From: an uncultured Gammaproteobacteria bacterium
GTDB taxonomy: Bacteria; Patescibacteriota; Microgenomatia; JAUYPR01
DNA: 64,000 nt
Assembly (NCBI GenBank): GCA_964372495.1
Contig: CAYJQU010000002.1
Coordinates: forward strand, 25,040 to 89,039
Direction: 5' to 3'
Shown in pieces: positions 94-62,485 of the stretch. The notes under the pieces are model-generated. The model was not told where the DNA came from, searched no databases, and saw only the letters and a list, made by a program, of their open reading frames with translations. The translations under genes and the position numbers were made by a program. Within the stretch, counting starts at the first letter, position 1, and every line of letters begins with the position of its first letter.

Positions 94-1038
94 ATGAGCT
101 CATTTGAGGTTCTCACTATCGTAGGCACGCTTATTTTTCTCGAGGGGATACTCTCGCTTGATAACGCGGCTATTTTGGGAGCGATTGCGAGTAAACTCCC
201 AGCAGACCAAGCAGTTCCGTGGCCACGAGGATTACGAGCTATCGGGTCAAAACTGAATCGACTCCTTGGAAATCAGCGGCAGGCAGCCCTCAAAGTTGGC
301 CTTTTTGGCGCGTACGCTGGTCGACTGCTTATGCTCTTCCTTGCCAGCTGGATTGTTCATAATCCATGGCTCAAATTAGCAGGAGGAGGATACCTACTGA
401 AGCTGGGACTTGAGGGAATCTCGATTGCTCCAAAGGAGAAACAAAAAGAGCAACAGATCCATGCACCCGAGAGTTTTTGGAGTGCGGTTGCAGTTATTGA
501 ACTGGTGGACCTTGCGTTTTCACTGGACAATGTGCTGGCTGCGGTGGCTATCTCCGAAGCATTTTGGGTTATAGCCCTTGGGGTGGGTTTGGGCATCATC
601 GCGATGCGATTTGCGGCCAGCATCTTTGCCTACCTTATCAAGATTGAGCCCCACTTGGTGCGGGCAGCGTATCTCCTTATCTTTGTCATTGCAATCGAGC
701 TCATCTTAGAACAACTGGCGCAGCTACATGTGGAACACTGGCAGAGGTTAGTTATCTCACTTGCAATCATCGGGTTTACGTTTCTGTATCGCCGTCTGCC
801 TCCGTACTTGCAGTTGCAAAGGACGTTTCGACTCATCGGCACTGCGGGGTATTACCTTGATGAAGGTATTAATTATCTCTTTGTCCCAGTAAAGCTTAGT
901 CTTCGCTTTGCGTTTGTCGAGGTACTCAGACCCACCGGCCTGCGCCTTGCCCATGTCTACAGTCGCATAGAAAAAATCGTAATCGCGTCAGTCGCCTACA
1001 TTGCCATACGGCTCCGGCGCATCCGCGGCTCTGCCTAG
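94..1038 (+). CDS. TerC-family integral membrane protein
   Basis: Hydrophobic throughout, with repeated LSLDN/FSLDN motifs typical of the TerC/Alx family. Confidence 0.55.
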   Translation: MSSFEVLTIVGTLIFLEGILSLDNAAILGAIASKLPADQAVPWPRGLRAIGSKLNRLLGNQRQAALKVGLFGAYAGRLLMLFLASWIVHNPWLKLAGGGYLLKLGLEGISIAPKEKQKEQQIHAPESFWSAVAVIELVDLAFSLDNVLAAVAISEAFWVIALGVGLGIIAMRFAASIFAYLIKIEPHLVRAAYLLIFVIAIELILEQLAQLHVEHWQRLVISLAIIGFTFLYRRLPPYLQLQRTFRLIGTAGYYLDEGINYLFVPVKLSLRFAFVEVLRPTGLRLAHVYSRIEKIVIASVAYIAIRLRRIRGSA

Positions 1039-1087
1039 AGTTTTCGAGCATGGCCTTCAATCTTCCCAAAAGACAGGTGATTCTGGT

Positions 1088-2023
1088 ATGCTGTTTCCTA
1101 CGTTTATGGCGCCAGATTTCACCGGCGGCACCAGCTGGCTCAACTCAGAGCCGCTTACTATTACCCAGCTGCGAGGTAAAGTTGTCGTCGTAGATTTCTG
1201 GACCTACACCTGTATCAACTGCATTCGCACACTCCCCTATCTCACCAAATGGTACGAGAAGTACAAAGACAAGGGGCTAGTCATCATCGGTGTGCATACC
1301 CCTGAGTTTGAGTTTGAAAAAAGCACAAAAAACGTACAGGAAGCCATCAAAGATTTAGGTATTACCTATCCAGTGGTACAAGACAACGAGTATCTGATCT
1401 GGCAAGCGTATGACAATCACTACTGGCCGGCAAAATACTTTATTGACAAGGACGGCGTTATCCGAAACTCCCATTTTGGGGAGGGAGCCCACGAGGAATC
1501 CGAGAAGCTCGTCCAGCAGCTTCTTGTAGAAACAGGAGTAAAGGCACAGATGCCGATTACAAAACTCCAGGAGCCGAAAAACGGTGCACGCACGCCGGAA
1601 ACGTACCTTGGCTATCGGCGCATGGCAAATTTCGCATCTCCGGAAATTCTACGAAGCAACAGGCGCTCCTCCTACACCATACCGACAAATTTACTGGTGA
1701 GAAGCTTTGCACTGGGCGGCAGCTGGACTGTTGGCGAGGAGCGTTCAATTGCCGAAAAAGGTGCATCGTTGGCATTTCACTTTGAAGCAAAAGAGGTGTA
1801 TGTAGTTATGCGACCGCCTGAGGGGAAAGCGACAGTAAACGTGCTGCTGGACGGCAAGCCTGTAGATAAAGAGCATGCTGGTATAGACGTTCAGAACGGA
1901 CAGGTCGGTATTGATGAGGATCGGATGTATCGGTTCATCAAGCTCCCCCGCACCGAAAGCCATATCCTGACGCTCGAGTTTCCTGAAGGCAATGTTGAGG
2001 TCTACGCTTTTACGTTTGGGTAG
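1088..2023 (+). CDS. Thioredoxin-fold thiol-disulfide oxidoreductase (TlpA/ResA/DipZ-C-like redoxin)
   Basis: VVVDFWTYTCINCIRTLPYL carries a CxxC motif in a redoxin-like context. I placed the start at ATG 1088, after the AGGTGA ribosome-binding site at 1074-1079, rather than at the overlapping track start 1001. Confidence 0.7.
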   Translation: MLFPTFMAPDFTGGTSWLNSEPLTITQLRGKVVVVDFWTYTCINCIRTLPYLTKWYEKYKDKGLVIIGVHTPEFEFEKSTKNVQEAIKDLGITYPVVQDNEYLIWQAYDNHYWPAKYFIDKDGVIRNSHFGEGAHEESEKLVQQLLVETGVKAQMPITKLQEPKNGARTPETYLGYRRMANFASPEILRSNRRSSYTIPTNLLVRSFALGGSWTVGEERSIAEKGASLAFHFEAKEVYVVMRPPEGKATVNVLLDGKPVDKEHAGIDVQNGQVGIDEDRMYRFIKLPRTESHILTLEFPEGNVEVYAFTFG

Positions 2024-2904
2024 GTAGATCTGCTATACTGGTTACTGAAACAATCGAAAAGGTTCCTTGGAGGCTTCCCTACTCCAAAGATAGCTCTGTC
2101 GATACGGCCAGAGCGGGGCCACACAAGCCTCTGCCCTGTCCAGTCCAGCGCATACCCTTTTTCTGAACCGGCCAAAATAGCGCCCAAGAGCACATCTCGC
2201 ATTTGGGGTGTGTGTACCACGAAAGCACGGGCCTCTCCTGAAAGAAACTTCAGAATCGCATCCGGCCACGTCACGCAAGTTGCACTATCTGTCTCAAACA
2301 CTTCGTAGCCCTTTTGGGCAATACAATCAACGATCGATTTTGCGACTCGATTATTCTTAAATATACGCTCTCTTACCACCGGAGGAATCTTGATTATCTC
2401 CGACTGCTTCAGCCCATGACGATAGACGTTCTCTGCCTGGCAAGCATGCCCATGCTTGTCTAAAAAGTATGCTCTGTCACGCGCAGGAAAATACACGAGA
2501 GCGGAAACCATCTCCTCCTCCTCGACAAGTCCCACACAAATCGAGTACGAGTCTTTTCCGCTGGCATACTCCAATGTCCCGTCCACGGGATCTATTACCA
2601 GAGAACGGTTAGCTGTTTTATTTGGAAATAGCTTGACGAGGGAAGTGTCCTCTTCTGCATCGAGATAAATTGTTTCTGGATTGAAAAGGTCAAGGGCCGC
2701 AAGTAAAATGATTTCTTGCACCATCTCATCAACTATCGTCTTCGCCTTGCGTCCCAGTACTACATTCTCCGTGTCCCCCTCCATTACCTCTATCTCTTTC
2801 CCAACGTTCTCTACTTTTCCCTGCAGCTCCCGCGCCACCACCCCCGCCTGTCGTACTGCCCGGCTCATGCGCTGCAAAAATAAATGCCGCTGTCTCAATT
2901 CACT
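2002..2904 (-). CDS. Inositol monophosphatase / 3'(2'),5'-bisphosphate nucleotidase family protein
   Basis: DPVDGT metal-binding motif and overall IMPase-like architecture. The start is probably MSELRQ, 22 codons into the track ORF. Confidence 0.6.
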   Translation of the reverse strand, partial: SELRQRHLFLQRMSRAVRQAGVVARELQGKVENVGKEIEVMEGDTENVVLGRKAKTIVDEMVQEIILLAALDLFNPETIYLDAEEDTSLVKLFPNKTANRSLVIDPVDGTLEYASGKDSYSICVGLVEEEEMVSALVYFPARDRAYFLDKHGHACQAENVYRHGLKQSEIIKIPPVVRERIFKNNRVAKSIVDCIAQKGYEVFETDSATCVTWPDAILKFLSGEARAFVVHTPQMRDVLLGAILAGSEKGYALDWTGQRLVWPRSGRIDRAIFGVGKPPRNLFDCFSNQYSRSTYPNVKA

Positions 2905-3025
2905 CATTGTGTTTCTGGCCTGTCTTTTTTCATCGCCCGATTGTACCAAATAGCATAAACTAAACGTCAACTAGTCGACAAAACTCTGCTATAGCACATT
3001 TTCGTCGGTCGTCCACTCCCTTGGG

Positions 3026-3931
3026 TTGATATCGCAATATGGCAACAGGTGCTATGGCAAACAGAAGCATGCTATTATATGTCCTGACCACCTAAGAAAC
3101 ATGCCTATACAGCCAATTATATCCTCAGGCCAGATGAACAAATTTCAGGCTCAAATTTACGCTTTCTATAAAAACTATAAAAGAGATTTTCCGTGGCGAC
3201 ATACAAATGACCCCTATTATATTTTAATTTCTGAGGTAATGCTCCAGCAAACGCAAACCTACCGCGTACTCCCTAAGTATCTTGAGTTCCTGAAGAGATT
3301 TCCAACGGTAGAGGACCTTGCCAGCGCTCCGCTGGCTGATGTTCTCACTGTATGGAGCGGCCTGGGATACAATCGGCGTGCACGGTTCCTTCAGCAAGTA
3401 GCCAAGATCATTGTTGAGGCATACCAGGGAAACGTACCCTCTGATCCTAAGCAGCTTGATGCACTCCCAGGCATTGGACATACTACCGCATCCGCAGTAG
3501 CCGCTTTCTCATATAACCGCCCGGTGGTTTTTATTGAGACGAACATCAGACGAGTTTTTATTCATTTTTTCTTTCCAGAGGACAAGTTTGTCTCCGATAA
3601 AACGCTTCTGCCTCTTGTTGCCCAAACACTGGATAAGGACAACTCCAGGGAATGGTACTGGGCACTTATGGACTATGGAGCTCACCTGGCTTCGAAGGTC
3701 GGTAACCCAAATCGGCGAAGTGCGCATTACACGAAACAATCAGCATTTGAAGGCTCAGTACGAAAGGTACGAGGAGAGATACTAAGGCTATTACTTTACC
3801 ATCGTGAGATTAATCGCCGGGAGTTATTTTCGAATTTCTCCAATAACTCTCCGAAGGCAGAGCGCGCCCTGGATGGACTTGTACGCGACGGTCTTCTCAA
3901 AGTGGTCGACCAGACCATTCAGCTAGCCTAA
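3026..3931 (+). CDS. HhH-GPD DNA glycosylase, MutY-like N-terminal domain
   Basis: ISEVMLQQTQ and WSGLGYNRRARFL match the MutY helix-hairpin-helix/GPD signature. The Cys-x6-Cys-x2-Cys-x5-Cys iron-sulfur loop and the C-terminal MutT-like domain are not present. Confidence 0.7.
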   Translation: MISQYGNRCYGKQKHAIICPDHLRNMPIQPIISSGQMNKFQAQIYAFYKNYKRDFPWRHTNDPYYILISEVMLQQTQTYRVLPKYLEFLKRFPTVEDLASAPLADVLTVWSGLGYNRRARFLQQVAKIIVEAYQGNVPSDPKQLDALPGIGHTTASAVAAFSYNRPVVFIETNIRRVFIHFFFPEDKFVSDKTLLPLVAQTLDKDNSREWYWALMDYGAHLASKVGNPNRRSAHYTKQSAFEGSVRKVRGEILRLLLYHREINRRELFSNFSNNSPKAERALDGLVRDGLLKVVDQTIQLA

Positions 3932-4068
3932 AACACTTCCAGTCCACAAACGGCGCATTACAACCAGCACAATTTTCTTAAACACCTGATAACGGAAGCT
4001 TTCAACAATCAGACTTCCTGAAAATGAACCTGCGATAGCAATGAAAAATAATGATGTAAAATACAGTT

Positions 4069-4404
4069 ATGGGCGTTGTGATTGTTGATGAAAAAGTTGC
4101 CCCAGAAGATCTTGTTATAGCACAAGAAGAATACGGGGAATATGTCAAGATTGTCATTGACATCGAAACAGAAGCAATGGCTATTGGGGGAGAGTGGCAT
4201 GCTGACGCCGAGAAAGAATTGCTTGAAGCAGGAAGTAAACAAAGTAACATGTGGGGAGGCGGAATCGATCTTACCTCCAAACGCATTGAGACTATTGCCC
4301 TCATTAACATACGACCTCGGCTCGGCAATGATAGCCAAGAAATTATTGATCCTAAAATCCGCCAGCGTTTCGTTACAATTGCCCGGAAAAAGTTTTGCTT
4401 ATGA
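4069..4404 (+). CDS. Hypothetical small acidic protein (111 aa)
   Basis: Long ORF in AT-rich DNA (about 42 percent GC by eye) with many D/E residues. Its TGA stop overlaps the ATG of the next ORF (ATGA). Confidence 0.45.
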   Translation: MGVVIVDEKVAPEDLVIAQEEYGEYVKIVIDIETEAMAIGGEWHADAEKELLEAGSKQSNMWGGGIDLTSKRIETIALINIRPRLGNDSQEIIDPKIRQRFVTIARKKFCL

Positions 4405-4667
4405 ATGTCGACATAGCCAATCTATCTGTCGACTTACGGAGAATCTCTTATTGGATCTATCGAGGTCGAACCGAGCTTGCTGACAAATTTCTAAATCAAT
4501 GTAAAGTAAAATATCGCACTATTCCTACACATATCGGTAATTATACGAACGTCTGGGATGAAGTAGAACGGATCCAGAATGCACAAAAAAAACAGATTGA
4601 GGGTGCAGAGCGTGCACTCACCCTTAGTCGGGTTCTGGAAATCTATTCACGCAATCATGCATCTTAA
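4401..4667 (+). CDS. Hypothetical small basic protein (88 aa)
   Basis: ATG at 4401 overlaps the upstream stop (ATGA coupling). K/R-rich and AT-rich. No motif recognised. Confidence 0.45.
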   Translation: MNVDIANLSVDLRRISYWIYRGRTELADKFLNQCKVKYRTIPTHIGNYTNVWDEVERIQNAQKKQIEGAERALTLSRVLEIYSRNHAS

Positions 4668-4718
4668 ATCAGAACGCTCGCTGCTATAGCTGTGAGCGAG
4701 CGCAGCGAGTCGAATCAG

Positions 4719-4789
4719 CTGCCGGGCTAGGATTCGAACCTAAATTACCAGGTCCAGAGCCTGGTTGCCTACCATTAGCAGACCCGGCA
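4719..4789 (-). tRNA. tRNA-Gln (anticodon CUG)
   Basis: Manual cloverleaf fold on the minus strand. The acceptor stem UGCCGGG/CCCGGCA has the U1:A72 pair typical of bacterial tRNA-Gln. D-stem UGCU/GGCA, anticodon stem CCAGG/CCUGG with loop CUCUGGA, T-stem/loop UUAGG-UUCGAAU-CCUAG. CCA is not encoded. Confidence 0.8.
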
Positions 4790-5016
4790 CTATAAGTTTA
4801 GAGATAACACCGAAAACTGATAAGCTTCTGGAAATATTGTACCTCATTTTTCTTCCGCAGTCTAATCGCCGTCTTCCTTACTTCCGAATGTAATCCAAGT
4901 AGCACAAGCGCATCGTTTACATCAGTAAGCAATTTGCGAATCCTATTTATAAATCATCAACAAGTAAAACAACTCCTGCTAAACCCTTTTTTCATAAAAC
5001 TGCCCCATTATGTATA

Positions 5017-6234
5017 ATGAGCGATATGGAAAGAATGCCGGGCCCTAGTGCTGACTGGGTGAGAAAAAGAAAGGGTGATAGAGTAAAAGTAGAAGTTGTT
5101 CAGGTCGACCCAAATACTGGAGTTACTACAATCTGGGCAAAACACTTGAAGTATTTTAGAGAATCAAGAATTGACCAACTTCCTCACAGTGGCTTATATC
5201 GCTGTATCTCCCGTTCTGCAAAGCCAGGAACAATTCCTGAACAACCCAGTTATGCAATCGAGGCGCATCACTCTGGAATCCATAAACATATAGCTTTGGA
5301 AAGAGCAGCTGATGGTTTAGGCTTAGGTTTAAAATTGCATATAATTGATGAATCAGAACCTAACCATTTTTTTGTAAACTATCAAGTCGACCATCTCAGA
5401 AGTATCGGGATACATCACAATTCGATGGATTTGGATGCAATTTACCAATCTTTAAAAGCTCGTCCCCTAGGTGCTAATCTTCTAGAGCTGGGAGAATTTT
5501 ATCGCAATACTGGTGCTGTTGCAACCTTTAACCCTTCTATGGGAGTAGTTGGCCCAGAGCTAGATGGGGACCAAAGGCTATATCTTGATTGGGCTCAATC
5601 TGAAACCAGATGGAAGAGAGACAAAATTATGAAAAATTGGACTGATGAGGAAAGAGCTAGAGTTATAATTGAAGTTGGTACAATCGTAAAAGGCGCTGTG
5701 ACGCAACATTTGGGACAAGATTTTCAACAACCTGATTTGGAGACATTAACTTCTGGTTTGATGGATGCTGTGTTAGTAGATTTACCTTTTGATTTTGATA
5801 CAAAAGAGGGAACTCTAGATAGATTAGCTGTTATTGCTGATTTAGTAGTTAGAAATACCGCCATGCTTGTTACAGCTAACAGACAAAAGTATGCGTATTT
5901 GAGTGATTTTACTGCGAACTTATATTTCTCACCACCAAATCGCGAAGAAATTGGTATAGAGATTGAAGATTTTGAATATGAGCCGATCCACAGAGACAGT
6001 TTAAGATTTGGAGAACGGTATAGGTATGAAGATTATGATTATTTAGTTACCAGAGATAATTCAGGCAGAGTAACTACTAGAATTGTCCGCATATTAGGAA
6101 AAACAACACCGTTACAAGTAACTGTCCGCGAGGAAATTGATTTGGAGGCATTAACCAAACTCTTAACGACTCCTGAAAGTATTGGGTGGGAGAAAGCATT
6201 AAGGGTTGCTGATATAGAACTTCAAAAAGGTTAA
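5017..6234 (+). CDS. Hypothetical protein (405 aa), AT-rich orphan gene
   Basis: 1.2-kb uninterrupted ORF in roughly 38-42 percent GC DNA, flanked by roughly 58 percent GC DNA. A TATAAT box at 5002-5007 precedes it. The start could be ATG 5017 or ATG 5035, the latter after GGAAAG. It has a His-rich segment HHSGIHKH and no recognisable domain. Confidence 0.6.
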   Translation: MSDMERMPGPSADWVRKRKGDRVKVEVVQVDPNTGVTTIWAKHLKYFRESRIDQLPHSGLYRCISRSAKPGTIPEQPSYAIEAHHSGIHKHIALERAADGLGLGLKLHIIDESEPNHFFVNYQVDHLRSIGIHHNSMDLDAIYQSLKARPLGANLLELGEFYRNTGAVATFNPSMGVVGPELDGDQRLYLDWAQSETRWKRDKIMKNWTDEERARVIIEVGTIVKGAVTQHLGQDFQQPDLETLTSGLMDAVLVDLPFDFDTKEGTLDRLAVIADLVVRNTAMLVTANRQKYAYLSDFTANLYFSPPNREEIGIEIEDFEYEPIHRDSLRFGERYRYEDYDYLVTRDNSGRVTTRIVRILGKTTPLQVTVREEIDLEALTKLLTTPESIGWEKALRVADIELQKG

Positions 6235-6269
6235 TCTAACAACACTATTCATTTAAGTCGGCTTCGTAG

Positions 6270-7691
6270 CTACCGATCGCCAACAGTATCAATAGCAGAC
6301 TGTAGGTGAGAAAGAACAGTATCTCTCCCCAACACGAGCATCGTGTCAAAAAGCGGAGGAGTTGCCGTTCTACCAGTAACTGCCACCCGTAGAAGCATAA
6401 ACAGCTCCCCATGCTTGAGGTGGTATCGGTCTGCTAGTGCCCGCATAGCCTGCTCAAGCGCATCATGCTCCCATTGGCACTCCTTTAACGTAGAAACTGC
6501 ATCCTGAAGTACTTGCTTAACATCAGCCACACCTTCTAACTTGAGTAGCCTCCGCTCCACCACAACATCCTCAAAGAAAAAGTCTGCAAGGATCTTGAAG
6601 TCAGCAAGCGTAATCATCCTATCGCGCACGAGCGGCAGCACGTTCTCCACCAGTCCTGCTTCCCATTCTGGGGGTACAAACGGTTTGAGTGCTTCTAGCA
6701 CCCGTGATGCGGGGAGTGTACGAATGTAGTGTCCATTAAACCAATCCAGCTTGTTGCGATCGAAAAATGCCGGACTCTTCTGCACACGCTCCAGGCTGAA
6801 CGACTGTGAAAGCTCGTCCAACGTAAACACTTCCCGGTTATCCGCCGGGGCCGAGTCAGATTCGGCTGGGGCCCACCCCAAAAGTGCCAGAAAATTAACC
6901 AAGGCTTCCGGCAAATACCCCTGCTCTCGATACGTAAGTACCGACTCCGCGCCGTGGCGTTTTGAAAGCTTTGACCGATCGGCTCCAACAATAATCGGCA
7001 GGTGGGCAAACTGCGGCGGGCTCCATCCAAGGAACTGATATACCAAAAGATGTTTTGGGGTCGATGAGAGCCATTCCTCTGCACGAATCACGTGGGTTAC
7101 CCCCATGTCATGATCGTCTACCACCACCGCCAGATGGTACGTTGGGAAGCCATCAGATTTTATAAGCACTTGGTCATCAAGTAACGCGTTTTGAAACGTT
7201 ACTTTCCCCCGAACGATATCCTCAAGCACCGTAACCCCTTGCTGTGGCACCTTCATGCGAACCACGTACGGTCTAGATGCCTGCAGGGCCTTGGCTACCT
7301 CGTCCTTACTGAGGGCCAAACACGTCTGATCATAGCGCGGCGGTTCCCTCCGCTCTTCTTGCTCCTTTCGCATCTGCGCCAGCCGCTCAGGAGTGCAGAA
7401 GCAATGATATGCATTGCCGCTCTCCAGAAGGATCTCTGCCGCTTTCTTATACACATCCAGGCGCTGCGACTGATACACCGGCCCCTCGTCCCACGAAAGC
7501 CCCAACCACTGCATGCTTTCCATAATCCTGTCAACCGACCCTTCTATATATCGCTTTCGGTCTGTATCTTCTATGCGTAGGATAAATATACCTCTCTGTT
7601 TCTTTGCAAAGAGGTAATTGAACAAGGCGGTTCGAATATTGCCAACATGCGGATCTCCGGTTGGCGATGGAGGATAGCGAACGCGCACCAT
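6270..7691 (-). CDS. gltX: Glutamyl-tRNA synthetase
   Basis: Class I HIGH motif (PHVGN) and KMSKS-type KLSKRHG, with GluRS-like length and sequence. Confidence 0.9.
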   Translation of the reverse strand: MVRVRYPPSPTGDPHVGNIRTALFNYLFAKKQRGIFILRIEDTDRKRYIEGSVDRIMESMQWLGLSWDEGPVYQSQRLDVYKKAAEILLESGNAYHCFCTPERLAQMRKEQEERREPPRYDQTCLALSKDEVAKALQASRPYVVRMKVPQQGVTVLEDIVRGKVTFQNALLDDQVLIKSDGFPTYHLAVVVDDHDMGVTHVIRAEEWLSSTPKHLLVYQFLGWSPPQFAHLPIIVGADRSKLSKRHGAESVLTYREQGYLPEALVNFLALLGWAPAESDSAPADNREVFTLDELSQSFSLERVQKSPAFFDRNKLDWFNGHYIRTLPASRVLEALKPFVPPEWEAGLVENVLPLVRDRMITLADFKILADFFFEDVVVERRLLKLEGVADVKQVLQDAVSTLKECQWEHDALEQAMRALADRYHLKHGELFMLLRVAVTGRTATPPLFDTMLVLGRDTVLSHLQSAIDTVGDR

Positions 7692-8820
7692 GGGGAGATT
7701 GTATCAAATACGCTATACTGTATGTGTGGCTACCCTGACAGAGACTGCCTATTACGCGCGCAAACTCCTACGTCTTGCCGCGTATACTGCACTGGTGCTC
7801 ATCATTGCAAAACTCGGATTTGATTTAGCGTATGCGGAGTATCGCCGACGCAACCCACTCCCACTACCCCAACCGCAGGTAGCTTTTGGACGCCTCCCCC
7901 GCCCCGCGTTACCGGACACCAAACTGTTCTCCGGGCCGGTGCGCTATATTCTTGATACCATCGACGGTACGTTCCCCGAAAGTTCACCTTCCGCCCGAGT
8001 CTTCTTGACTCCAGCACCACCTGTAAGCTTTCTAACCCCCAGCCGCGTCATGGATCAGGCAAAGCAGTGGGGTTTTACGGGTGAACCAGCAAACGTGCAG
8101 GCAACTATCTATCGCTTTGTCGATGAAGAGAAAGGTAGAACCATCACCATTGACGGGCTAACCGGCAACTTTATCTATCGGTACACGTACGAGGTCGATC
8201 CGAACGTATTTACTCAAGCAAACGTCCCCTTAGGAGACAGCGCACTACGGGAAGCAATGAATGTGTTGTCGCAATACCACGTGCTCGGGGACCAAAACAC
8301 ACCTCTTTTACGAAGTGATCTTGCCCAAGGTGATACCGTAGTCACCCACTACCGCTACGAAAATAACGCACTCATACATACGCCTGCTCCCTCACAAGCT
8401 CATGCGATCCGCGTGGAGTTCTCGCGCGAACCACTTGATGGGATCCCGGTGTTGCCCGCTGACCCAGACAGTCCTCCGGTATCTATCTTGTTTTCAGGAG
8501 CAGGCGACGACCGCCGGATTCTTGAGCTTCGCTACCAATACACACCGATTGGGCTGGAAACCGCGTCCACATATCCTATCAGAAGCTCACGCGAGGTGTG
8601 GAACGAACTCCAGGCAGGCAAAGCCACCTTGGTGCGGATACCGCAAAAAGAAGTGCGCGAACTTCCCATTCGATCTATTCTTCTCGCCTACGTGCTGCCA
8701 CAAAAAAGGCAAGATTATCTTCAGCCTGTCTGGGTTTTTGAAGGAGAGCAATTCCTCGCATATGTGCCAGCCGTGACTGAGGAATGGTTCGGTCAGGAAG
8801 AAACAGCTTCCCAAGAGTAA
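7690..8820 (+). CDS. Hypothetical membrane-anchored protein
   Basis: N-terminal hydrophobic helix followed by a roughly 330-aa unannotatable domain. The true start is probably downstream of the track start, which abuts the gltX start. Confidence 0.4.
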   Translation: MGRLYQIRYTVCVATLTETAYYARKLLRLAAYTALVLIIAKLGFDLAYAEYRRRNPLPLPQPQVAFGRLPRPALPDTKLFSGPVRYILDTIDGTFPESSPSARVFLTPAPPVSFLTPSRVMDQAKQWGFTGEPANVQATIYRFVDEEKGRTITIDGLTGNFIYRYTYEVDPNVFTQANVPLGDSALREAMNVLSQYHVLGDQNTPLLRSDLAQGDTVVTHYRYENNALIHTPAPSQAHAIRVEFSREPLDGIPVLPADPDSPPVSILFSGAGDDRRILELRYQYTPIGLETASTYPIRSSREVWNELQAGKATLVRIPQKEVRELPIRSILLAYVLPQKRQDYLQPVWVFEGEQFLAYVPAVTEEWFGQEETASQE

Positions 8821-11760: not shown

Positions 11761-12087
11761 ATGATGCAGTACGAAAGACGGCCCAGTAAAAAACCAACTG
11801 CGTTCGAGCGGTATATAACATTTGTGCTCTTTACATGTCATACCATAAACGACGTATCCTCTACCGAGACGCGTCGTGCAATGCTCCATCATGAAGCGGC
11901 AGACGAATATCGGAGGGCTTATAACGTTGGTCTTCCGAAGGCTTACCAAATGGTCAGGGCAGATCTTGATAAAGTTTTAAGATGTGACCAATCGAACGGT
12001 TTTGCACCAATAGCAATGCCATCAGAAAAATGGCGAGGTCAGAATAGAAACAACTATTGCACCCACGATATAAGTGGGGTACGCTAA
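11761..12087 (+). CDS. Hypothetical small protein (108 aa)
   Basis: Ribosome-binding site GAAAGGAAG 5-13 nt upstream. It is the second copy of the promoter-hairpin-smallORF arrangement. Confidence 0.35.
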   Translation: MMQYERRPSKKPTAFERYITFVLFTCHTINDVSSTETRRAMLHHEAADEYRRAYNVGLPKAYQMVRADLDKVLRCDQSNGFAPIAMPSEKWRGQNRNNYCTHDISGVR

Positions 12088-12302
12088 AAAGCATGGCAGC
12101 ATCTCCGGACCGACCATCGTCAATAACTTATTTTAGGAGAGGCGGGGCAGAGTCACCCGCTCGTTTGCGCGGGCACTTTAACAGCCTTGCGGTACATGCG
12201 GCGCGTCAGAAGGACACATATACAAGAATCCCTCTGACTCGACGTCGCGAGATTTCCGCTTCTCGCCTTGACAACCACAGAGGTACTCCTCATGATAGAA
12301 GT

Positions 12303-12938
12303 GTGAGCGACCTGTTTGACGAAGAGACCCCTATTACAAAATCACCGGTGCAGCGTACTCGTCGCAGAGGGTTCCTGGGAACGGCGGTAAAGATCGCGGG
12401 GGGTGCCGGTGTCGCTCTGGCTGGAGGTGTGACAATAGCAAGAAATATCGAACCAGCAATGGCCAAATGGTACGAGGTTACGGGAGATCCACGTTTTTTC
12501 CAAGCCAAAGCGCGAGAACTGTTCTCCTCGCCTCCTCCCAATGCACCACTTCTTTCCGACATTTCAATAGCCACAGTATTCCCTGCAGAAAACATCTATA
12601 AACAACAGTACATTAAGGGTGCAACCCTGCGTGCCGCTCCCATTATCTCAGGAAATGCTATTGGAGAAACACAAGCAATTCCCCGAGGGACAAGGCTGCC
12701 GGAAGGTTACATCATTGAAGATGGGTTTGATGAAGTTATAGGGGATAACCGATGGTTCGTTTTTCCTCTCGCGCAGCTCCTTAAAGAAAACCCTACCATC
12801 AAGATAGATCGATCAAAAATTCCCGCAGGTACCGAATTTACATTTATCCATCTAGCAAATACAAGCGTGTGGGGAACAGAAAAGATAACTCACATTACGC
12901 CGATTCGTTGGCGACACTTACCCTCCGCACGTCCCTGA
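12303..12938 (+). CDS. Putative Tat-exported protein (start uncertain)
   Basis: Twin-arginine motif TRRRGFLG followed by a hydrophobic h-region AVKIAGGAGVALAGG. The track ORF starts at 12057 but has no in-frame ATG. GTG at 12303 or 12348 would place the Tat signal at the N-terminus. Confidence 0.4.
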   Translation: MSDLFDEETPITKSPVQRTRRRGFLGTAVKIAGGAGVALAGGVTIARNIEPAMAKWYEVTGDPRFFQAKARELFSSPPPNAPLLSDISIATVFPAENIYKQQYIKGATLRAAPIISGNAIGETQAIPRGTRLPEGYIIEDGFDEVIGDNRWFVFPLAQLLKENPTIKIDRSKIPAGTEFTFIHLANTSVWGTEKITHITPIRWRHLPSARP

Positions 12939-14526: not shown

Positions 14527-14560
14527 CGCGAACTTCTATTGTACAAGGTATACTTTACCT

Positions 14561-15935: not shown

Positions 15936-16436
15936 CTAACTAGTGGAAGATGCCGCTTGGAAACGAGCCATCAACCGCAAGCCGCCATCGAATATCTCTT
16001 GTATCGGCCGGGAGATAGTTTCACTGACGCGGACAAATCTACCGGGGGCTATTCGAGCATCGACACGCCATCGTCTCATAAACGTTCCCTCAAGAACAGC
16101 TGCGGGGTCTCCTGCAGAAACCCCTTTCCCTGTACTGTTCACTCTAGCCACCAATATACACTCGATCAGACTAGCAATAGCCAGCTCCACCTCGAGCTCC
16201 CGAACTTTCTTGTCATACGGAACAACTTCATTGTACATGCCCGCACGTTTCATCCCATTGCTTTGCTTCCTACAGTCATTCAAGAGCTCCCTGATTTCTA
16301 CTATGACTGCAGCAAGGCCTCCTAGAGTCGCGTCAGGAAATTTAGGACTGGGATACTCCGACACAACCGCTGGTCTCGCCCGAACTTCTCTCACGAGCGC
16401 TGACGGATCAGGAAATTTTCGTTCATACCGCGCCAT
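15936..16436 (-). CDS. Hypothetical protein (166 aa)
   Basis: ORF with a palindromic element about 80-110 nt upstream of its start. No motif recognised. Confidence 0.4.
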   Translation of the reverse strand: MARYERKFPDPSALVREVRARPAVVSEYPSPKFPDATLGGLAAVIVEIRELLNDCRKQSNGMKRAGMYNEVVPYDKKVRELEVELAIASLIECILVARVNSTGKGVSAGDPAAVLEGTFMRRWRVDARIAPGRFVRVSETISRPIQEIFDGGLRLMARFQAASSTS

Positions 16437-20225: not shown

Positions 20226-20253
20226 AGCGTACCCCTATTGTACATGCATAGGC

Positions 20254-24445: not shown

Positions 24446-24838
24446 CCGTACCAGCTTTACCCCTAGAAATGCAAACGACGCCCATACAAATATTTGAACG
24501 ACGTTTGTAAAAATAAACGCCTCTCTCGGCCATGTAATTAACTCATACCAGATACCATTCACAAACAGTACAGAAAGCAAGGGTGACAACATACCTCCAA
24601 TAAAAAAGCCCACCGTCCCCAACGTTAACGCAAGCTTTGGAAGTCTACTCAAACCCCACATGAGTGCCATACCGACACCAAGCAGTGTGCTGACACCCCT
24701 CACCCACCACTCATCACTCGGCTGTCGAGCGAAGTTGTAGATTGGCGTTATATACGGAAATACAAAATAGCCAGCTAACGCACCAATAAGCCCAAAAAGA
24801 ATGATCTTGGACAGGATGGGCTTCATCCCTCTTTCCAC
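24440..24838 (-). CDS. Small integral membrane protein (132 aa)
   Basis: About 4 predicted transmembrane helices. No motif recognised. Confidence 0.4.
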   Translation of the reverse strand: MERGMKPILSKIILFGLIGALAGYFVFPYITPIYNFARQPSDEWWVRGVSTLLGVGMALMWGLSRLPKLALTLGTVGFFIGGMLSPLLSVLFVNGIWYELITWPREAFIFTNVVQIFVWASFAFLGVKLVRL

Positions 24839-25383
24839 TTAATCGAGCAGCCGATGGAGGGTTCTTGCGGGGATGGGGGAGTGCCGCCGGTAACAAGCCG
24901 CTCAAGCGCGTCTTCTAAATTCCGCTCTGTGACACGCGTCGGGCTCTGCCAATTGTCGTTGACGCGCCCATGGTAAAACACCGTCCATTGATCATCCGTT
25001 TTTTTGAATAAATACGGGTCAGGTGTACATTCCGCCTGGAAGGCTTTAGCTACCTCTTGCGATTCATCACGCAGGTAGGGGAATGGTATCCCCCACTCTC
25101 TCTCCTTCTTTTTCATTTCCTCAAAGGAATCCTCTGGGTAGGTCGCCGCATCATTCGGGTTAATCGCGAGAAACCCGACCTCTCCCCCATATTTTTTATG
25201 GAGATTGATAATAAGCGGCCACGCGGCCTTTGCGTATGGACAGTGATTACAGGTGAAAACAACCAGGAGTCCCTTTTTATCAGAAAAGTCCGCCGGGGAA
25301 ACGGTGTTCCCTTCAGTATCAGGGAGGGCAAACTCCGGCATCTCCCACCCTGCCTGATGCAATTGTGAATACGTCAGCGCCAT
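24823..25383 (-). CDS. Thioredoxin-fold protein (CxxC; redoxin/peroxiredoxin-like)
   Basis: LLVVFTCNHCPYAKAAWP carries a CxxC motif in a thioredoxin-like context. Confidence 0.6.
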   Translation of the reverse strand: MALTYSQLHQAGWEMPEFALPDTEGNTVSPADFSDKKGLLVVFTCNHCPYAKAAWPLIINLHKKYGGEVGFLAINPNDAATYPEDSFEEMKKKEREWGIPFPYLRDESQEVAKAFQAECTPDPYLFKKTDDQWTVFYHGRVNDNWQSPTRVTERNLEDALERLVTGGTPPSPQEPSIGCSIKWKEG

Positions 25384-48933: not shown

Positions 48934-49379
48934 CGCCTCGTCAGTACCGCGCCTCCTGCTTGCTCAAGTTTCTGTTGAGCGCTCCTGGTCACTGGTACAG
49001 ACACTGTATAGACGGCAGCGACATTTCCCACGCCGGAGAGCTTTACCCCACTGCGACGCATAGTGGTCACATCGACTATACCATGCACCACCAGACTGTC
49101 CATTGTAACCTCTCCCGCCGGATGCTTGGCTAATCGATCCAATGAGATAAGGAGAGGTTTTTGGCTAACTGCTCGATTGCCTATACCGCGAAGATACGGA
49201 AGGCGCTTGAGCAGTCGGTTGCGACGCCCGCCGCCTCCTGCAAAGTAGGATGGAACGTTTTCGTGGGCCTTTTGACCCTTCGTACCACGCCCCGCTGTTT
49301 TTCCCTTGCCTGAAGCTATGCCACGACCCAGACGTTTGGCTTTCCGTTCGACTATTTTTGGAAGACGAGAAAGATTCAT
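48930..49379 (-). CDS. rplO: 50S ribosomal protein L15
   Basis: L15 Gly/Arg-rich N-terminus [21 protein letters not shown]. Confidence 0.9.
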
Positions 49380-49831
49380 CGTGAACGCTCCCGTAAGAGT
49401 GCGAGTGCTTCCATCGTAGCATGTACATTAGAGGCTTTATTGGTCGTGCCGAGGCGCTTGCTCACGATATCCTTGATCCCCGCAGCCTCAACCACCGCGC
49501 GCACCGCACCACCTGATATAACGCCAGTCCCTGTGGGTGCTGGCTTAAGGAGCACCTTGGCCGCGCCACGTTTCACCATCACTTCATGAGGAATGGTTGT
49601 CTTATACAATGGTACCGAAAGCAAATGCTTTTTTGCATACGCCACGGCCTTGCGCACCGCGCTCTGAACATCTGGCGCGTTGCCCTTGCCTACTCCTACT
49701 TTACCTTTTTGGTCTCCCACTACCGCTAACACCGAAAACCTCATTCGGTTGCCTCCCTTGGTCTTTTTGGAAACGCGCTTCACGGTAACGATAGTTTCTA
49801 CAAAAGTCGTAGGTTCTATTGTATTCATCAA
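49376..49831 (-). CDS. rpsE: 30S ribosomal protein S5
   Basis: S5 double-stranded-RNA-binding and C-terminal domains. It abuts rplO directly, with no rpmD between them. Confidence 0.9.
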
Positions 49832-59012: not shown

Positions 59013-61103
59013 TTATGTGCCTTTTGCTTTCGCAATAATAGCTTCTGCAATGTTTGCTGGCACCTCTTGGTAATGGGAAGGCTCCATATAGTAACCTGCC
59101 CTCCCTTGGGTCATACTCCTCAACTCTGTTGCATATCCAGGTAACTCCGCCAGCGGTCCTTCTGACATAATAACCACGGCATTCGCCCGCTTCTCGGTAC
59201 CCAAAATCTGGGCTCGCTTGCTTGATAAATTACCGATCACTTCACCCATAAACTCTTCAGGAGTCGTCACTTCAAGTTTCATGATCGGTTCCAAAAGTAC
59301 CGGTTCGGCGTGCCGCGTGGCCTGCTCAAGTGCCATAGACCCGGCGATTTTAAACGCAATCTCCGACGAATCCACCTCGTGATACGTACCATCATACACC
59401 ACAACTTTCATATCCACGAGTGGATACCCCGCTACAACCCCTGCCTCCATCCGCTCCCTGACACCTTTCTCTATGGCCGGGATAAACTCCCGCGGAATTG
59501 CTCCGCCGACCACTTCTGACACCCACTGGTAGCCTTCACCCCGGGCACGTGGCTCAACCCGGAGGAAACAATGCCCATACTGCCCCCGTCCGCCAGATTG
59601 ACGAATATATTTCCCCTCACCTATGGCTGCGTGCTTGATCGTTTCTTTGTACGCCACCTGCGGCTTCCCCACATTTGCACCAACGCGGAATTCGCTCCTT
59701 AAACGGTCAACGAGCACCTCAAGCTGTAGTTCTCCCATACCTGAAATAATGGTCTGTCCTGTCTCGTGGTCAATCTTTACCCGAAACGTGGGATCTTCCT
59801 CAGAAAGTCTACCAAGCGCATAGCCCATCTTCTCCTGGTCAGCTTTTGTCTTTGGCTCTATGGCAAGCGATATTACCGGATCAGAGAATGTAATACCTTC
59901 CAACACAATAGGTGCTTGTTCAGAAGCCAAGGTATCTCCGGTACCGGTCTTTTCCAATCCAATAACTGCCACGATCTCGCCTGCAAACGCCTCGGGTACT
60001 TCCTCGCGCTGATTGGCGTGCATAAGGACCACACGACCTACTCGCTCCTTCTCGCCCTTAGTTGCGTTGAGCACATATGACCCACTTTTTAAGGTACCAG
60101 AATAGATCCGCACATAGGTTAACTTTCCCACATGCGGATCCACTTGAATTTTAAACGCCAAGCCTGAAAATGGCGCCGACGGATCGGCTTTGCGTATTTC
60201 CTGGACCTGACTTTTTGGATTGTATCCAGAGACTTCAGGAATGTCAAGCGGGGACGGCAAAAAGTCTACGATAGCGTCCAGTAATGGCTGCACTGCCTTG
60301 TTGCGTAGACTTGAGCCAGCCAGCACTGGCACAATCTTATACTCAATCACCGCTCGCCGGAGTGCGACCTTCAGTTCGTCGACTGTAAGTTCCTGGCCAT
60401 TTAAGTACTTCTCAAGGATTGTATCATCGGTCTCAGCTATTTTTTCGACCAGCACGCGGCGAGCCTGCGTACACTGCTCACGTACATCCTCTGGAATTTC
60501 TTCCTTCCGGTATGTGGCACCGGTCTCATCTCCCTCCCAAATCAGCGCTGCCATGGTCAGCAGGTCCGCTACACCCCGGAAGGTCTGTTCCTTCCCTATG
60601 GGAATATTGTACGGTACTGCGTTGGCGCCCAGACGGTCTCGCACCGTTTGCACTGTGTGCTCAAAATCAGCGCCCAGCTTATCCATCTTATTGACAAAGC
60701 AGATGCGGGGAACCTTATACTTATCAGCTTGACGCCATACGGTTTCCGACTGGGACTGCACTCCCTCCTCTGCATCCAGCACAGTCACTCCACCATCCAA
60801 CACGCGCAGCGACCGCTCAACCTCTGCCGTAAAGTCCACATGACCCGGCGTGTCAATAAGGTTCAATCGAACATCTTTCCAGAAAGTTGTCGTCGCGGCA
60901 GACACGATCGTAATCCCCCGGGCCCGCTCTTGCTCCATCCAGTCAGTGACGGTCGTTCCTTCGTCGATATCGCCTAACTTATAGGTCCGGCCAGTGTAAA
61001 ACAGGATACGTTCAGTCGTAGTAGTTTTGCCCGCGTCAATATGCGCAATGATGCCAAAATTGCGAATCTTATCTAGAGGATATAAACGCGATGGAATCAC
61101 CAT
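59013..61103 (-). CDS. fusA: Elongation factor G
   Basis: AHIDAGKTT and DTPGHVDF G-domain and EF-G domains II-V. Confidence 0.95.
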
Positions 61104-61225: not shown

Positions 61226-62404
61226 CTAGGAGCATGCAAGTGAATCAGATACACACCGATCTGGGTCGGCAATATACACCCACCAATTGGGCACTTTCTT
61301 CCCATCAGTACCCATCAAGGTATTCCCAGCTCCAGGCATATTCTGCATCCACCATTGTAAATATCCATCTGTGGTACATTTCCATGCCGTGCAGTTAAGA
61401 TTTTCTTTTTGCCCTGATCTATCCGGCTTCCAGTTCCTGCAGTCGCTTTGAAAGTACGCCGTATTGATTCTGTCATATTCGGCGCTGGCATTTGGAGGGT
61501 TATGGGCATTCCCACATGACGTGCCCCTCCCCCATGACCTCTGATTTTGCGATTCATTTTCCCCCGACCAGCTCGACCACTCCGGTCGAAATCGTCTGAA
61601 AACTGCTTCCAAGTGATGGCTATACGACTCAAGTGCTTCGGCGAGGCCCCTGGTATAATTTAAGCCGTAGACTACTATTGTCTTATCGGGACAATACGGA
61701 AGCTGAGCACCATTTGTCGGTATTCCCCCGGAACCGGTAATCGCAGATTCCCACATACCGCCTGCGTACTCCCCTAGTCCATCTGCCCATAGAATGACAG
61801 CTTTTATATCTTTCTGTTTTGCCACATTACACAGATCGTACTTGCTAAATAATGCCCCGTAGTCGTATTTTCCTGATATTGTTGGCGGTGGGTTGTTCTC
61901 TGTTTTTATATCTTCGCTGCTTAGTGTGTACCGGAGGGATGCCTGAGCGTTCGCATTTGAGTAGCCGTGGTATCTACTAGCTTCATTCAGCGCAGGGAGT
62001 AAGGTGTTCTTCGTATATGCGGCCGGGTCACCTATTTCGGTGACGTACGTTGTGTTTGGATAATAGGCAAGCATCCACACTTTCACCTCGCGAGTTACTC
62101 CTGTGGGCGCAGGTGTTTGTTGGGGTGAAGGAATGGGACTGACCACAGAGGCTGGAGTAGAGCGTGGAATCGGGATTGGTGTTGGAGAGGGACGGACTGG
62201 TACATTTGTAGGAGAAGCACTTGGAATCGGAGTTGGACTCGGCACGGGAGTTGGATTAGATAGTGGCGACGCTGAGGGAGCGGGATTCGGCGAGGATGTT
62301 TGAGGTTGGGAATTTCTCTTGGTAAGAGAAAATGTTATCCCTGCTACTAGCGCAACTGCCAAGATAGCCACTAGGACCCAGAATTGCGAAATCCCACGCT
62401 GCAT
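61226..62404 (-). CDS. Hypothetical membrane-anchored, Cys-rich extracellular protein inserted in the str operon
   Basis: N-terminal transmembrane helix (FWVLVAILAVALVAGITF), a PSPTP-rich linker, a roughly 280-aa globular domain and at least 8 Cys in the C-terminal 90 aa. No recognised domain. Confidence 0.55.
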   Translation of the reverse strand: MQRGISQFWVLVAILAVALVAGITFSLTKRNSQPQTSSPNPAPSASPLSNPTPVPSPTPIPSASPTNVPVRPSPTPIPIPRSTPASVVSPIPSPQQTPAPTGVTREVKVWMLAYYPNTTYVTEIGDPAAYTKNTLLPALNEASRYHGYSNANAQASLRYTLSSEDIKTENNPPPTISGKYDYGALFSKYDLCNVAKQKDIKAVILWADGLGEYAGGMWESAITGSGGIPTNGAQLPYCPDKTIVVYGLNYTRGLAEALESYSHHLEAVFRRFRPEWSSWSGENESQNQRSWGRGTSCGNAHNPPNASAEYDRINTAYFQSDCRNWKPDRSGQKENLNCTAWKCTTDGYLQWWMQNMPGAGNTLMGTDGKKVPNWWVYIADPDRCVSDSLACS

Positions 62405-62485
62405 ATACCTATCCTCACGGAAGTGGCAAACCATGTCAATAGCTCTTATCCGCTTAAATGATTTAAATGAACAGAATTAGGAAAT

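Follow-up and report, generated by a model that had tools for sequence, protein, structure and literature searches.

It is likely that an open reading frame (ORF) lying between the tRNA-Gln gene and gltX in a 64-kb stretch of DNA from a groundwater bacterium (GenBank assembly GCA_964372495.1, contig CAYJQU010000002.1, positions 25,040 to 89,039; hereafter, the window) is a recently acquired and intact foreign gene. It belongs to a rare and unannotated protein family, would use its own promoter, and encodes a protein with a predicted three-part fold that may serve as a partner-binding accessory protein. A sequence-only reading of the window had picked out this ORF as a possibly horizontally acquired accessory or defence gene. 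The checks it had proposed included windowed GC and codon usage, remote homology, structure prediction with fold comparison, and presence or absence with neighbourhood in related genomes. These four were performed here.

In the ORF list of the window, the ORF in its longest form spans 5017..6234 on the forward strand and encodes 405 aa. Its length of about 1.2 kb, its place on the 5' side of tRNA-Gln, whose 5' end faces the gene, and its location between that tRNA and gltX agree with the sequence-only reading. The frame is free of stop codons from 4903 to 6231, which has a chance probability of ~7e-15 at the local base composition. The start at ATG 5026 (M4 of the 405-aa version, in the sequence MERMP) is preferred over ATG 5017, because the N-termini of homologs align there and public gene calls give 402 aa. 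The product is found in public collections as P0001/P0147. The gene is convergent with gltX, and 35 bp separate the two stop codons. The neighbours in the window are housekeeping genes: TerC, redoxin, inositol monophosphatase, HhH-GPD glycosylase, GltX, S11 peptidase, and AspRS. No paralog of the 402-aa protein was found elsewhere in the window. The coordinates of all features are listed in Table 1.

The base composition of the ORF is far from that of its surroundings. Its GC content is 39.2%, as the earlier estimate of about 40% had it, versus 51.8% for the window. The ~58% that the sequence-only reading gave for the chromosome was too high, as no 2-kb bin exceeds 56.6%, but the contrast is still extreme at the third codon position. 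The GC content at this position (GC3) is 0.278 in the ORF and 0.538 +/- 0.044 in the 47 other long ORFs of the window, whose total GC is 52.4 +/- 2.1%. The difference corresponds to about six standard deviations. By synonymous codon usage, the ORF is the strongest outlier in the window (z 4.7). Of all 1.2-kb segments of the 64 kb, the forty with the lowest GC have their starts at 3-6 kb. Scored for donor versus host usage, the codons are closer to those of genes that flank homologs on low-GC contigs than to those of the host, with a margin of +164 bits (+0.41 bits per codon); the score of host genes is -0.2 to -0.4 bits per codon.

The homologs at seven loci show 33-40% GC, close to or above the GC content of their own flanks (28-38%). 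This indicates that the family is at home in low-GC genomes, while the window copy resides in a genome of ~52% GC. The window copy has kept this signature, with GC3 and codon usage of the donor type.

Three host relatives, defined by GltX, allow the comparison of the insertion site: L092, L093, and L094, whose GltX proteins are 69, 62, and 55% identical to that of the window, respectively. All three keep the order of AspRS, S11 peptidase, a 361-aa gene (361/376 aa), and gltX, with synteny beginning at gltX. Beyond the 3' end of gltX, L092 and L093 carry Pterin_4a and L094 carries LigD/Ku. No member of the family was found in any frame of the three contigs, and no tRNA-Gln was found in them. 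As the relatives carry other cargo there, the 3' end of gltX is considered to be a variable junction and the gene an accessory insertion in it. The junction is a recurrent site of gene turnover in this lineage. Beyond the gltX 3' end, the segment 4246-5245 of L093 includes Pterin_4a, a PemK toxin gene, and a small upstream gene, and the segment 5032-8212 of L094 includes a LigD primase-polymerase, a ligase, and Ku.

In a second assembly (Logan, ERR3478686), 11.5 kb match the window at 99.84% identity, with 18 single-nucleotide polymorphisms, and both the gene and its junction with gltX are present. Two synonymous changes and K359R distinguish that copy of the gene. The intact gene in the second assembly argues against an assembly chimera and against a decaying pseudogene. 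From these sequence comparisons, the horizontal acquisition from a low-GC donor appears well supported. The proposal of a horizontally acquired accessory gene is upheld by the outlying GC3 and codon usage, by the low-GC homologs, and by the absence of the gene from the syntenic site in three relatives that retain the gltX side.

The gene lies in a low-GC islet, whose right edge is sharp and coincides with the stop codon of gltX. The islet genes differ in GC3: 0.384 for the DUF5674 gene, 0.352 for the 90-aa ORF, and 0.278 for the foreign gene. The first two are on the 3' side of tRNA-Gln and show codon usage intermediate between the host type and the donor type. This pair may have been acquired separately at the same hot spot. 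Neither gene has a match below E 0.3 in PADLOC or PHROG, and the literature search on DUF5674 found no papers. The two genes have the layout of a two-gene cassette, similar to toxin-antitoxin pairs. Elsewhere in the window, the ORFs at 12057-12938 and 61226-62434 are the next outliers in codon usage after 15936-16436 (z 2.1-2.3), far milder than the foreign gene. They have no Pfam match, with GC at the second codon position of ~0.52 and GC3 of 0.42-0.46.

There is no integrase or transposase gene in the islet; the only ORFs in 3932-6269 are the DUF5674 gene, the 90-aa ORF, and the 402-aa gene, and none has an integrase domain. No fragment of tRNA-Gln was seen elsewhere in the 64 kb by 16-mers with up to two mismatches, and no direct or inverted repeats flanking the islet were found. 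The sequence-only reading, which had found neither an integrase nor a direct repeat of the tRNA end, was correct in this respect. tRNA-linked genomic islets and islands bring accessory genes of foreign composition to tRNA loci. The islet in the window resembles them in foreign composition, tRNA-adjacent position, and absence from relatives. It differs in the lack of an integrase, the lack of a repeat of the tRNA 3' end, the position of the gene 5' of the tRNA, and the size of only ~2.3 kb. The logic of tRNA islands fits poorly, because the gene is 5' of the tRNA and there is neither an integrase nor an att repeat. Small foreign islets at variable junctions next to tRNA genes are themselves a known kind of feature; it is the encoded protein family that is undescribed.

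The exhaustive HMMER (phmmer) search of 1.84 billion representative proteins at E <= 1e-3 revealed 21 cluster representatives (P0002-P0022). Most are full length with 360-416 aa, and three are shorter (248-312 aa). The best E-values are 1.4e-94, 5.8e-89, 1.1e-61, and 6.3e-41, with residues ~4-404 covered. The identity between the window protein and the family members is 19-42%, with 40-42% for the best ones. The 18 full-length members align collinearly from end to end. The word-indexed search with the single protein found only itself, and the search with the profile A1 added only P0018. The term orphan, used in the sequence-only reading, thus holds for the word-indexed search but not in the strict sense, as the remote-homology search revealed a 21-cluster unnamed family with no annotated relative.

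Each cluster at 90% identity has one to three members, mostly on short contigs. All members with a known source are metagenomic, mostly from groundwater. P0016 corresponds to MBI4035819.1 (HY383_02635), a hypothetical protein of Candidatus Daviesbacteria (Patescibacteria). It and about 20 unnamed metagenomic clusters share the length class, collinearity, and motifs with the window protein. In the scan of JGI metagenomes, the contig of L004 was found again, and no other. As the sequence-only reading had noted, the window protein has no recognisable domain: searches with Pfam, NCBIfam, PADLOC, and PHROGs detected none, and the same searches on the 19 aligned family members returned nothing consistent. 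The protein family is described in no database, and its members have no described function.

The motifs common to the family in the alignment A1 are the N-terminal ME(R)xP, DPxTGVxTxW, RxDxxP, YRYxxYxY, and the C-terminal GWEKA. The window protein is full length and carries every family motif, including MExxP, DPxTGVxTxW, RxDxxP, and GWEKA. W391 and E392 are invariant, and at least 90% of the members share M4, D31, T38, R51, and Y122. There is no conserved His, Cys, or Ser in the family alignment. The His-rich segment HHSGIHKH, pointed out in the sequence-only reading, is present in the window protein but is not conserved in the family, and the possibility that it is a metal site was rejected for this reason. 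All 19 aligned members are acidic, with isoelectric points of 4.6-5.7. Their maximum hydropathy over 19 residues does not exceed 1.6, and no transmembrane-type segment is present.

AlphaFold2 with the 19-sequence alignment gave a model with a predicted local distance difference test score (pLDDT) of 88.9 and a predicted template modeling score of 0.72. With the single sequence, the pLDDT was 35.4. The model has three parts (Table 1). The N-terminal beta-meander carries DPxTGVxTxW, RxDxxP, and the non-conserved HHSGIHKH. The central helical bundle is the most variable part of the family, with a mean column entropy of 2.55. The C-terminal part ends with two short helices, which contain the GWEKA motif including W391 and E392. 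In the predicted fold, the conserved parts are the N-terminal tip and the helix with GWEKA at the C-terminus. The possibility that the two beta domains originated by internal duplication was rejected by hhalign (probability 0.3%).

The Foldseek comparison of the model with PDB showed nothing below E 0.06, with TM-scores of at most 0.2, and there was no meaningful match in BFVD, the set of viral structures. Sequence profiles of PDB, compared with the whole protein, the N-terminal domain, and the C-terminal domain, gave hits to designed helical repeats or noise and to nothing else. Known defence proteins gave no structural match. The model is a confidently predicted architecture with no counterpart in PDB or BFVD. 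Single-layer or meander beta-sheet proteins that were set beside the fold are the TCP (G-box) domain of CPAP/SAS-4, OspA, and MORN-repeat proteins. Outer-membrane barrels and MORN-type proteins were also named in the structure comparison of the model.

Table 1. Features of the foreign gene and the low-GC islet (positions in the 64-kb window)
Feature	Position	Strand	Details
Low-GC islet, ~2.3 kb	3932..6269	.	Contains DUF5674 gene, 90-aa gene, tRNA-Gln, and foreign gene; composition profile
DUF5674 gene	4069-4404	+	111 aa; Pfam PF18924, E 1.8e-23
90-aa ORF	4395-4667	+	No known family; overlaps DUF5674 gene by 10 nt
tRNA-Gln (anticodon CTG)	4718-4789	-	ARAGORN; Rfam tRNA 55.6 bits
-35-like hexamers	4989..4996	+	TTTTCA 4989-4994 (spacer 18) or TTCATA 4991-4996 (spacer 16)
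-10 box TATAAT	5013..5018	+	Sequence scan; overlaps first ATG 5017; sole TATAAT in 4701-5100
Coding sequence of foreign gene	5026..6234	+	402 aa from ATG 5026; stop TAA 6232-6234
N-terminal antiparallel beta-meander, 10 strands (predicted)	5059..5418	+	Residues 15-134 (405-aa numbering); AlphaFold2 model
Central helical bundle (predicted)	5431..5904	+	Residues 139-296; AlphaFold2 secondary structure
C-terminal beta-meander and two short helices (predicted)	5908..6228	+	Meander residues 298-371, YRYxxYxY; helices with GWEKA
gltX	6270..7691	-	Native gene, right boundary; Pfam tRNA-synt_1c on the matching gene call

The foreign gene is inferred to be transcribed from its own sigma-70-type promoter, with the -10 box listed in Table 1. 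The sequence-only reading had also assigned a TATAAT promoter to the gene. The box exists, but the position given for it, 5002-5007, is wrong; the bases there are GCCCCA. Together with a -35-like hexamer, the box makes 10/12 matches in the promoter scan, which is a match to the consensus alone. TATAAT ends 7 nt before ATG 5026 and no Shine-Dalgarno-like motif was found upstream of the gene; therefore, the transcript is probably leaderless or near-leaderless, starting at or next to ATG 5026. Several homologs also have -10-like boxes, 7-9 nt before their starts.

Similar boxes are seen elsewhere in the window. The sequence TGTAYAAT occurs six times, versus 2.4 expected, including 78-85, 5011-5018, 14538-14545(-), and 20237-20244(-). 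There are also -10-like boxes upstream of 6270-7691(-), 14561, 24823-25383(-), 33516, and 59013-61103(-). TGTAYAAT-type boxes are located 5-11 nt before start codons that have no Shine-Dalgarno motif, and a Shine-Dalgarno-like motif is present in 16 of the 50 ORFs of the window. Judging from these motifs, leaderless mRNAs look common in this genome.

The neighbourhoods of homologs are diverse. Toxin-antitoxin or SUKH genes adjoin the family member at three of the seven homolog loci. One locus has a PIN gene with a weak Phd/YefM-like partner, and another has DUF433 and DUF5615. Other homologs are in housekeeping contexts: uvrA/uvrC, TIM and LytR, and a helicase and tRNA-Ala. L089 has a packed same-strand cluster at 148-4460, in which a 406-aa protein, SUKH/SMI1_KNR4, a 475-aa paralog, and a 400-aa member are encoded in this order, followed by rpiB and rpe. 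The 475-aa tandem protein is a divergent paralog of the family (E 2e-26). The 406-aa protein has no toxin domain and belongs to no known family.

Two of the nine family loci (the window, L001, and the seven homolog loci) adjoin a tRNA gene. At L090, the family member (3218-4399) is 109 nt downstream of tRNA-Ala(CGC), which lies in the segment 3036-3167. Between them, at 3131-3167, there is a 37-nt copy of the 3' half of tRNA-Ala with 84% identity. ARAGORN and Rfam were both negative for this copy as a second tRNA. It looks like an att-type relic.

These observations can be arranged into one scenario. A gene from a low-GC donor would have entered a host with ~52% GC at the variable junction that has tRNA-Gln on one side and the 3' end of gltX on the other. 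It still has GC3 and codon usage of the donor type and is intact in two near-identical strains. It would be expressed from its own TATAAT box as a leaderless mRNA, and the protein would act by binding a partner, not by catalysis or membrane damage. With low confidence, partner binding is the most likely mode of action, because there is no conserved His, Cys, or Ser and no transmembrane segment. The protein may thus be a soluble binder without catalytic activity that belongs to the flexible gene pool and might be of the conflict or immunity type. An accessory protein of this type would fit the patchy distribution, the fast divergence, the tandem paralog, and the toxin-antitoxin or SUKH neighbours at some loci.

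Several observations weigh against this scenario. The closest homolog is only 42% identical and the donor is unsampled. The three relatives, with GltX identities of 55-69%, are distant, and their contigs stop a short way past gltX. Neither an integrase nor a transposase, an att repeat, or a flanking inverted repeat was found in the window. Several homolog contexts are plain housekeeping ones (uvrA/uvrC, rpiB/rpe, TIM, and helicase), so that the conflict-type role rests on a minority of the nine loci.

A stand-alone role of the horizontally acquired gene in anti-phage defence or abortive infection, as raised in the sequence-only reading, is unlikely. The stand-alone defence and abortive-infection genes in PADLOC resemble this gene in being single foreign genes with their own promoters at variable spots. 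The tRNA-adjacent position, the patchy and fast-evolving family, the toxin-antitoxin or SUKH genes at three homolog loci, and the PemK toxin at the equivalent variable site of L093 are consistent with such a role. However, the window protein has no match in PADLOC-DB 2.0 at E <= 1, and only one of the 19 family members matches a model, PDC-S05, with a marginal E of 0.01. No effector-type domain or feature (nuclease, NTPase, TIR, Sir2, protease, or transmembrane effector) is present, nor is any His, Cys, or Ser conserved, and the fold matches no known defence protein. The gene does not appear to lie in a defence island; its neighbours in the window and most homolog contexts are housekeeping. 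Thus, there is no positive evidence specific to phage defence or abortive infection.

A more specific possibility, which appears improbable, is that the protein is of the immunity type and neutralises a polymorphic toxin or comparable antagonist by binding, its gene being an orphan immunity gene. Immunity genes for polymorphic toxins spread horizontally and sometimes form arrays. In favour of this, the protein is soluble and acidic, no residues of catalytic type are conserved in it, and its family is rare and quickly diverging. At L089, two family members are encoded in a packed same-strand cluster right after the SUKH/SMI1_KNR4 gene and the 406-aa protein. On the other hand, a length of 400 aa is high for a protein of this kind. 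No toxin gene adjoins the foreign gene in the window or the family members at most homolog loci. The idea rests on the single locus L089, where the 406-aa protein lacks a toxin domain.

It is quite improbable that the gene is a remnant or cargo of a prophage, an integrative element, or a plasmid that once used the tRNA locus. The adjacency to tRNA-Gln, the second low-GC gene pair across tRNA-Gln, and the member at L090, 109 nt past tRNA-Ala with the partial tRNA copy (37 nt, 84%) between them, are in line with such an element. However, tblastn against 50,697 phage and 72,556 plasmid records found no match at E <= 1, and scans of IMG/VR with the protein and with the alignment A2 found no relative. 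PHROG gave no match for the window protein and only scattered ones for the family, each to one member at E >= 0.016. BFVD contained no meaningful fold match, the window has no integrase and no further tRNA fragment, and the gene is 5' of the tRNA.

An artefact, whether a chance ORF, a pseudogene, or an assembly chimera of DNA from two organisms, could be suspected from the metagenomic origin of the assembly and the shortness of the low-GC stretch, but can be dismissed as highly improbable given the open frame (chance ~7e-15), the mostly full-length homologs, the high-confidence fold driven by the alignment, the host-type DNA on both sides within one contig, the junction of the gene and gltX repeated in the second assembly with 18 differences over 11.5 kb, and the strain differences in the gene limited to two synonymous changes and one conservative change.

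The recent transfer of an intact accessory gene, which is the preferred explanation, would make the window a clean case of unameliorated gene transfer into a groundwater bacterium of ~52% GC. The donor pool would be of low GC and may be Patescibacteria-like, given the one member from Candidatus Daviesbacteria. If a function is found, such as partner binding, immunity, defence, or a symbiosis-linked role, its annotation would extend to the whole family and might inform gene flow between ultra-small bacteria and their neighbours. At present, the protein is one of the many hypothetical proteins of candidate phyla without a mechanistic handle. A far-reaching version of this explanation is that a new non-enzymatic conflict or immunity family, with an unseen three-part fold and an origin in Patescibacteria (candidate phyla radiation), has its founding example in this gene. 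The gene would have been caught just after its transfer into a groundwater bacterium of very different composition, possibly across the line that separates an episymbiont from its host or neighbour. This version is unlikely.

Some minor observations concern the host. Ribosomal protein genes are located at ~41-57 kb. The S5 gene (49376-49831, -) runs straight into the L15 gene (48930-49379, -), with no L30 between them. The lack of L30 is typical of Patescibacteria, although not exclusive to them. The nearest named relatives of GltX are ~50% identical and belong to Dehalococcoidia, Chloroflexota, and Patescibacteria.

At the other end of gltX, the longest ORF of this gene (start 7691, -) and the divergent 376-aa ORF (start 7690, +) overlap at their start codons, in 7688-7693. 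A GATACAAT box is directly upstream of 7691, the longest gltX start. GltX is shortened to 414 aa in public gene calls, although the alignment of relatives with 465-475 aa begins at residue 1-3. For the 376-aa protein, the tblastn match starts at 7726. One of the two overlapping starts, that of gltX or that of the 376-aa ORF, is probably mis-set.

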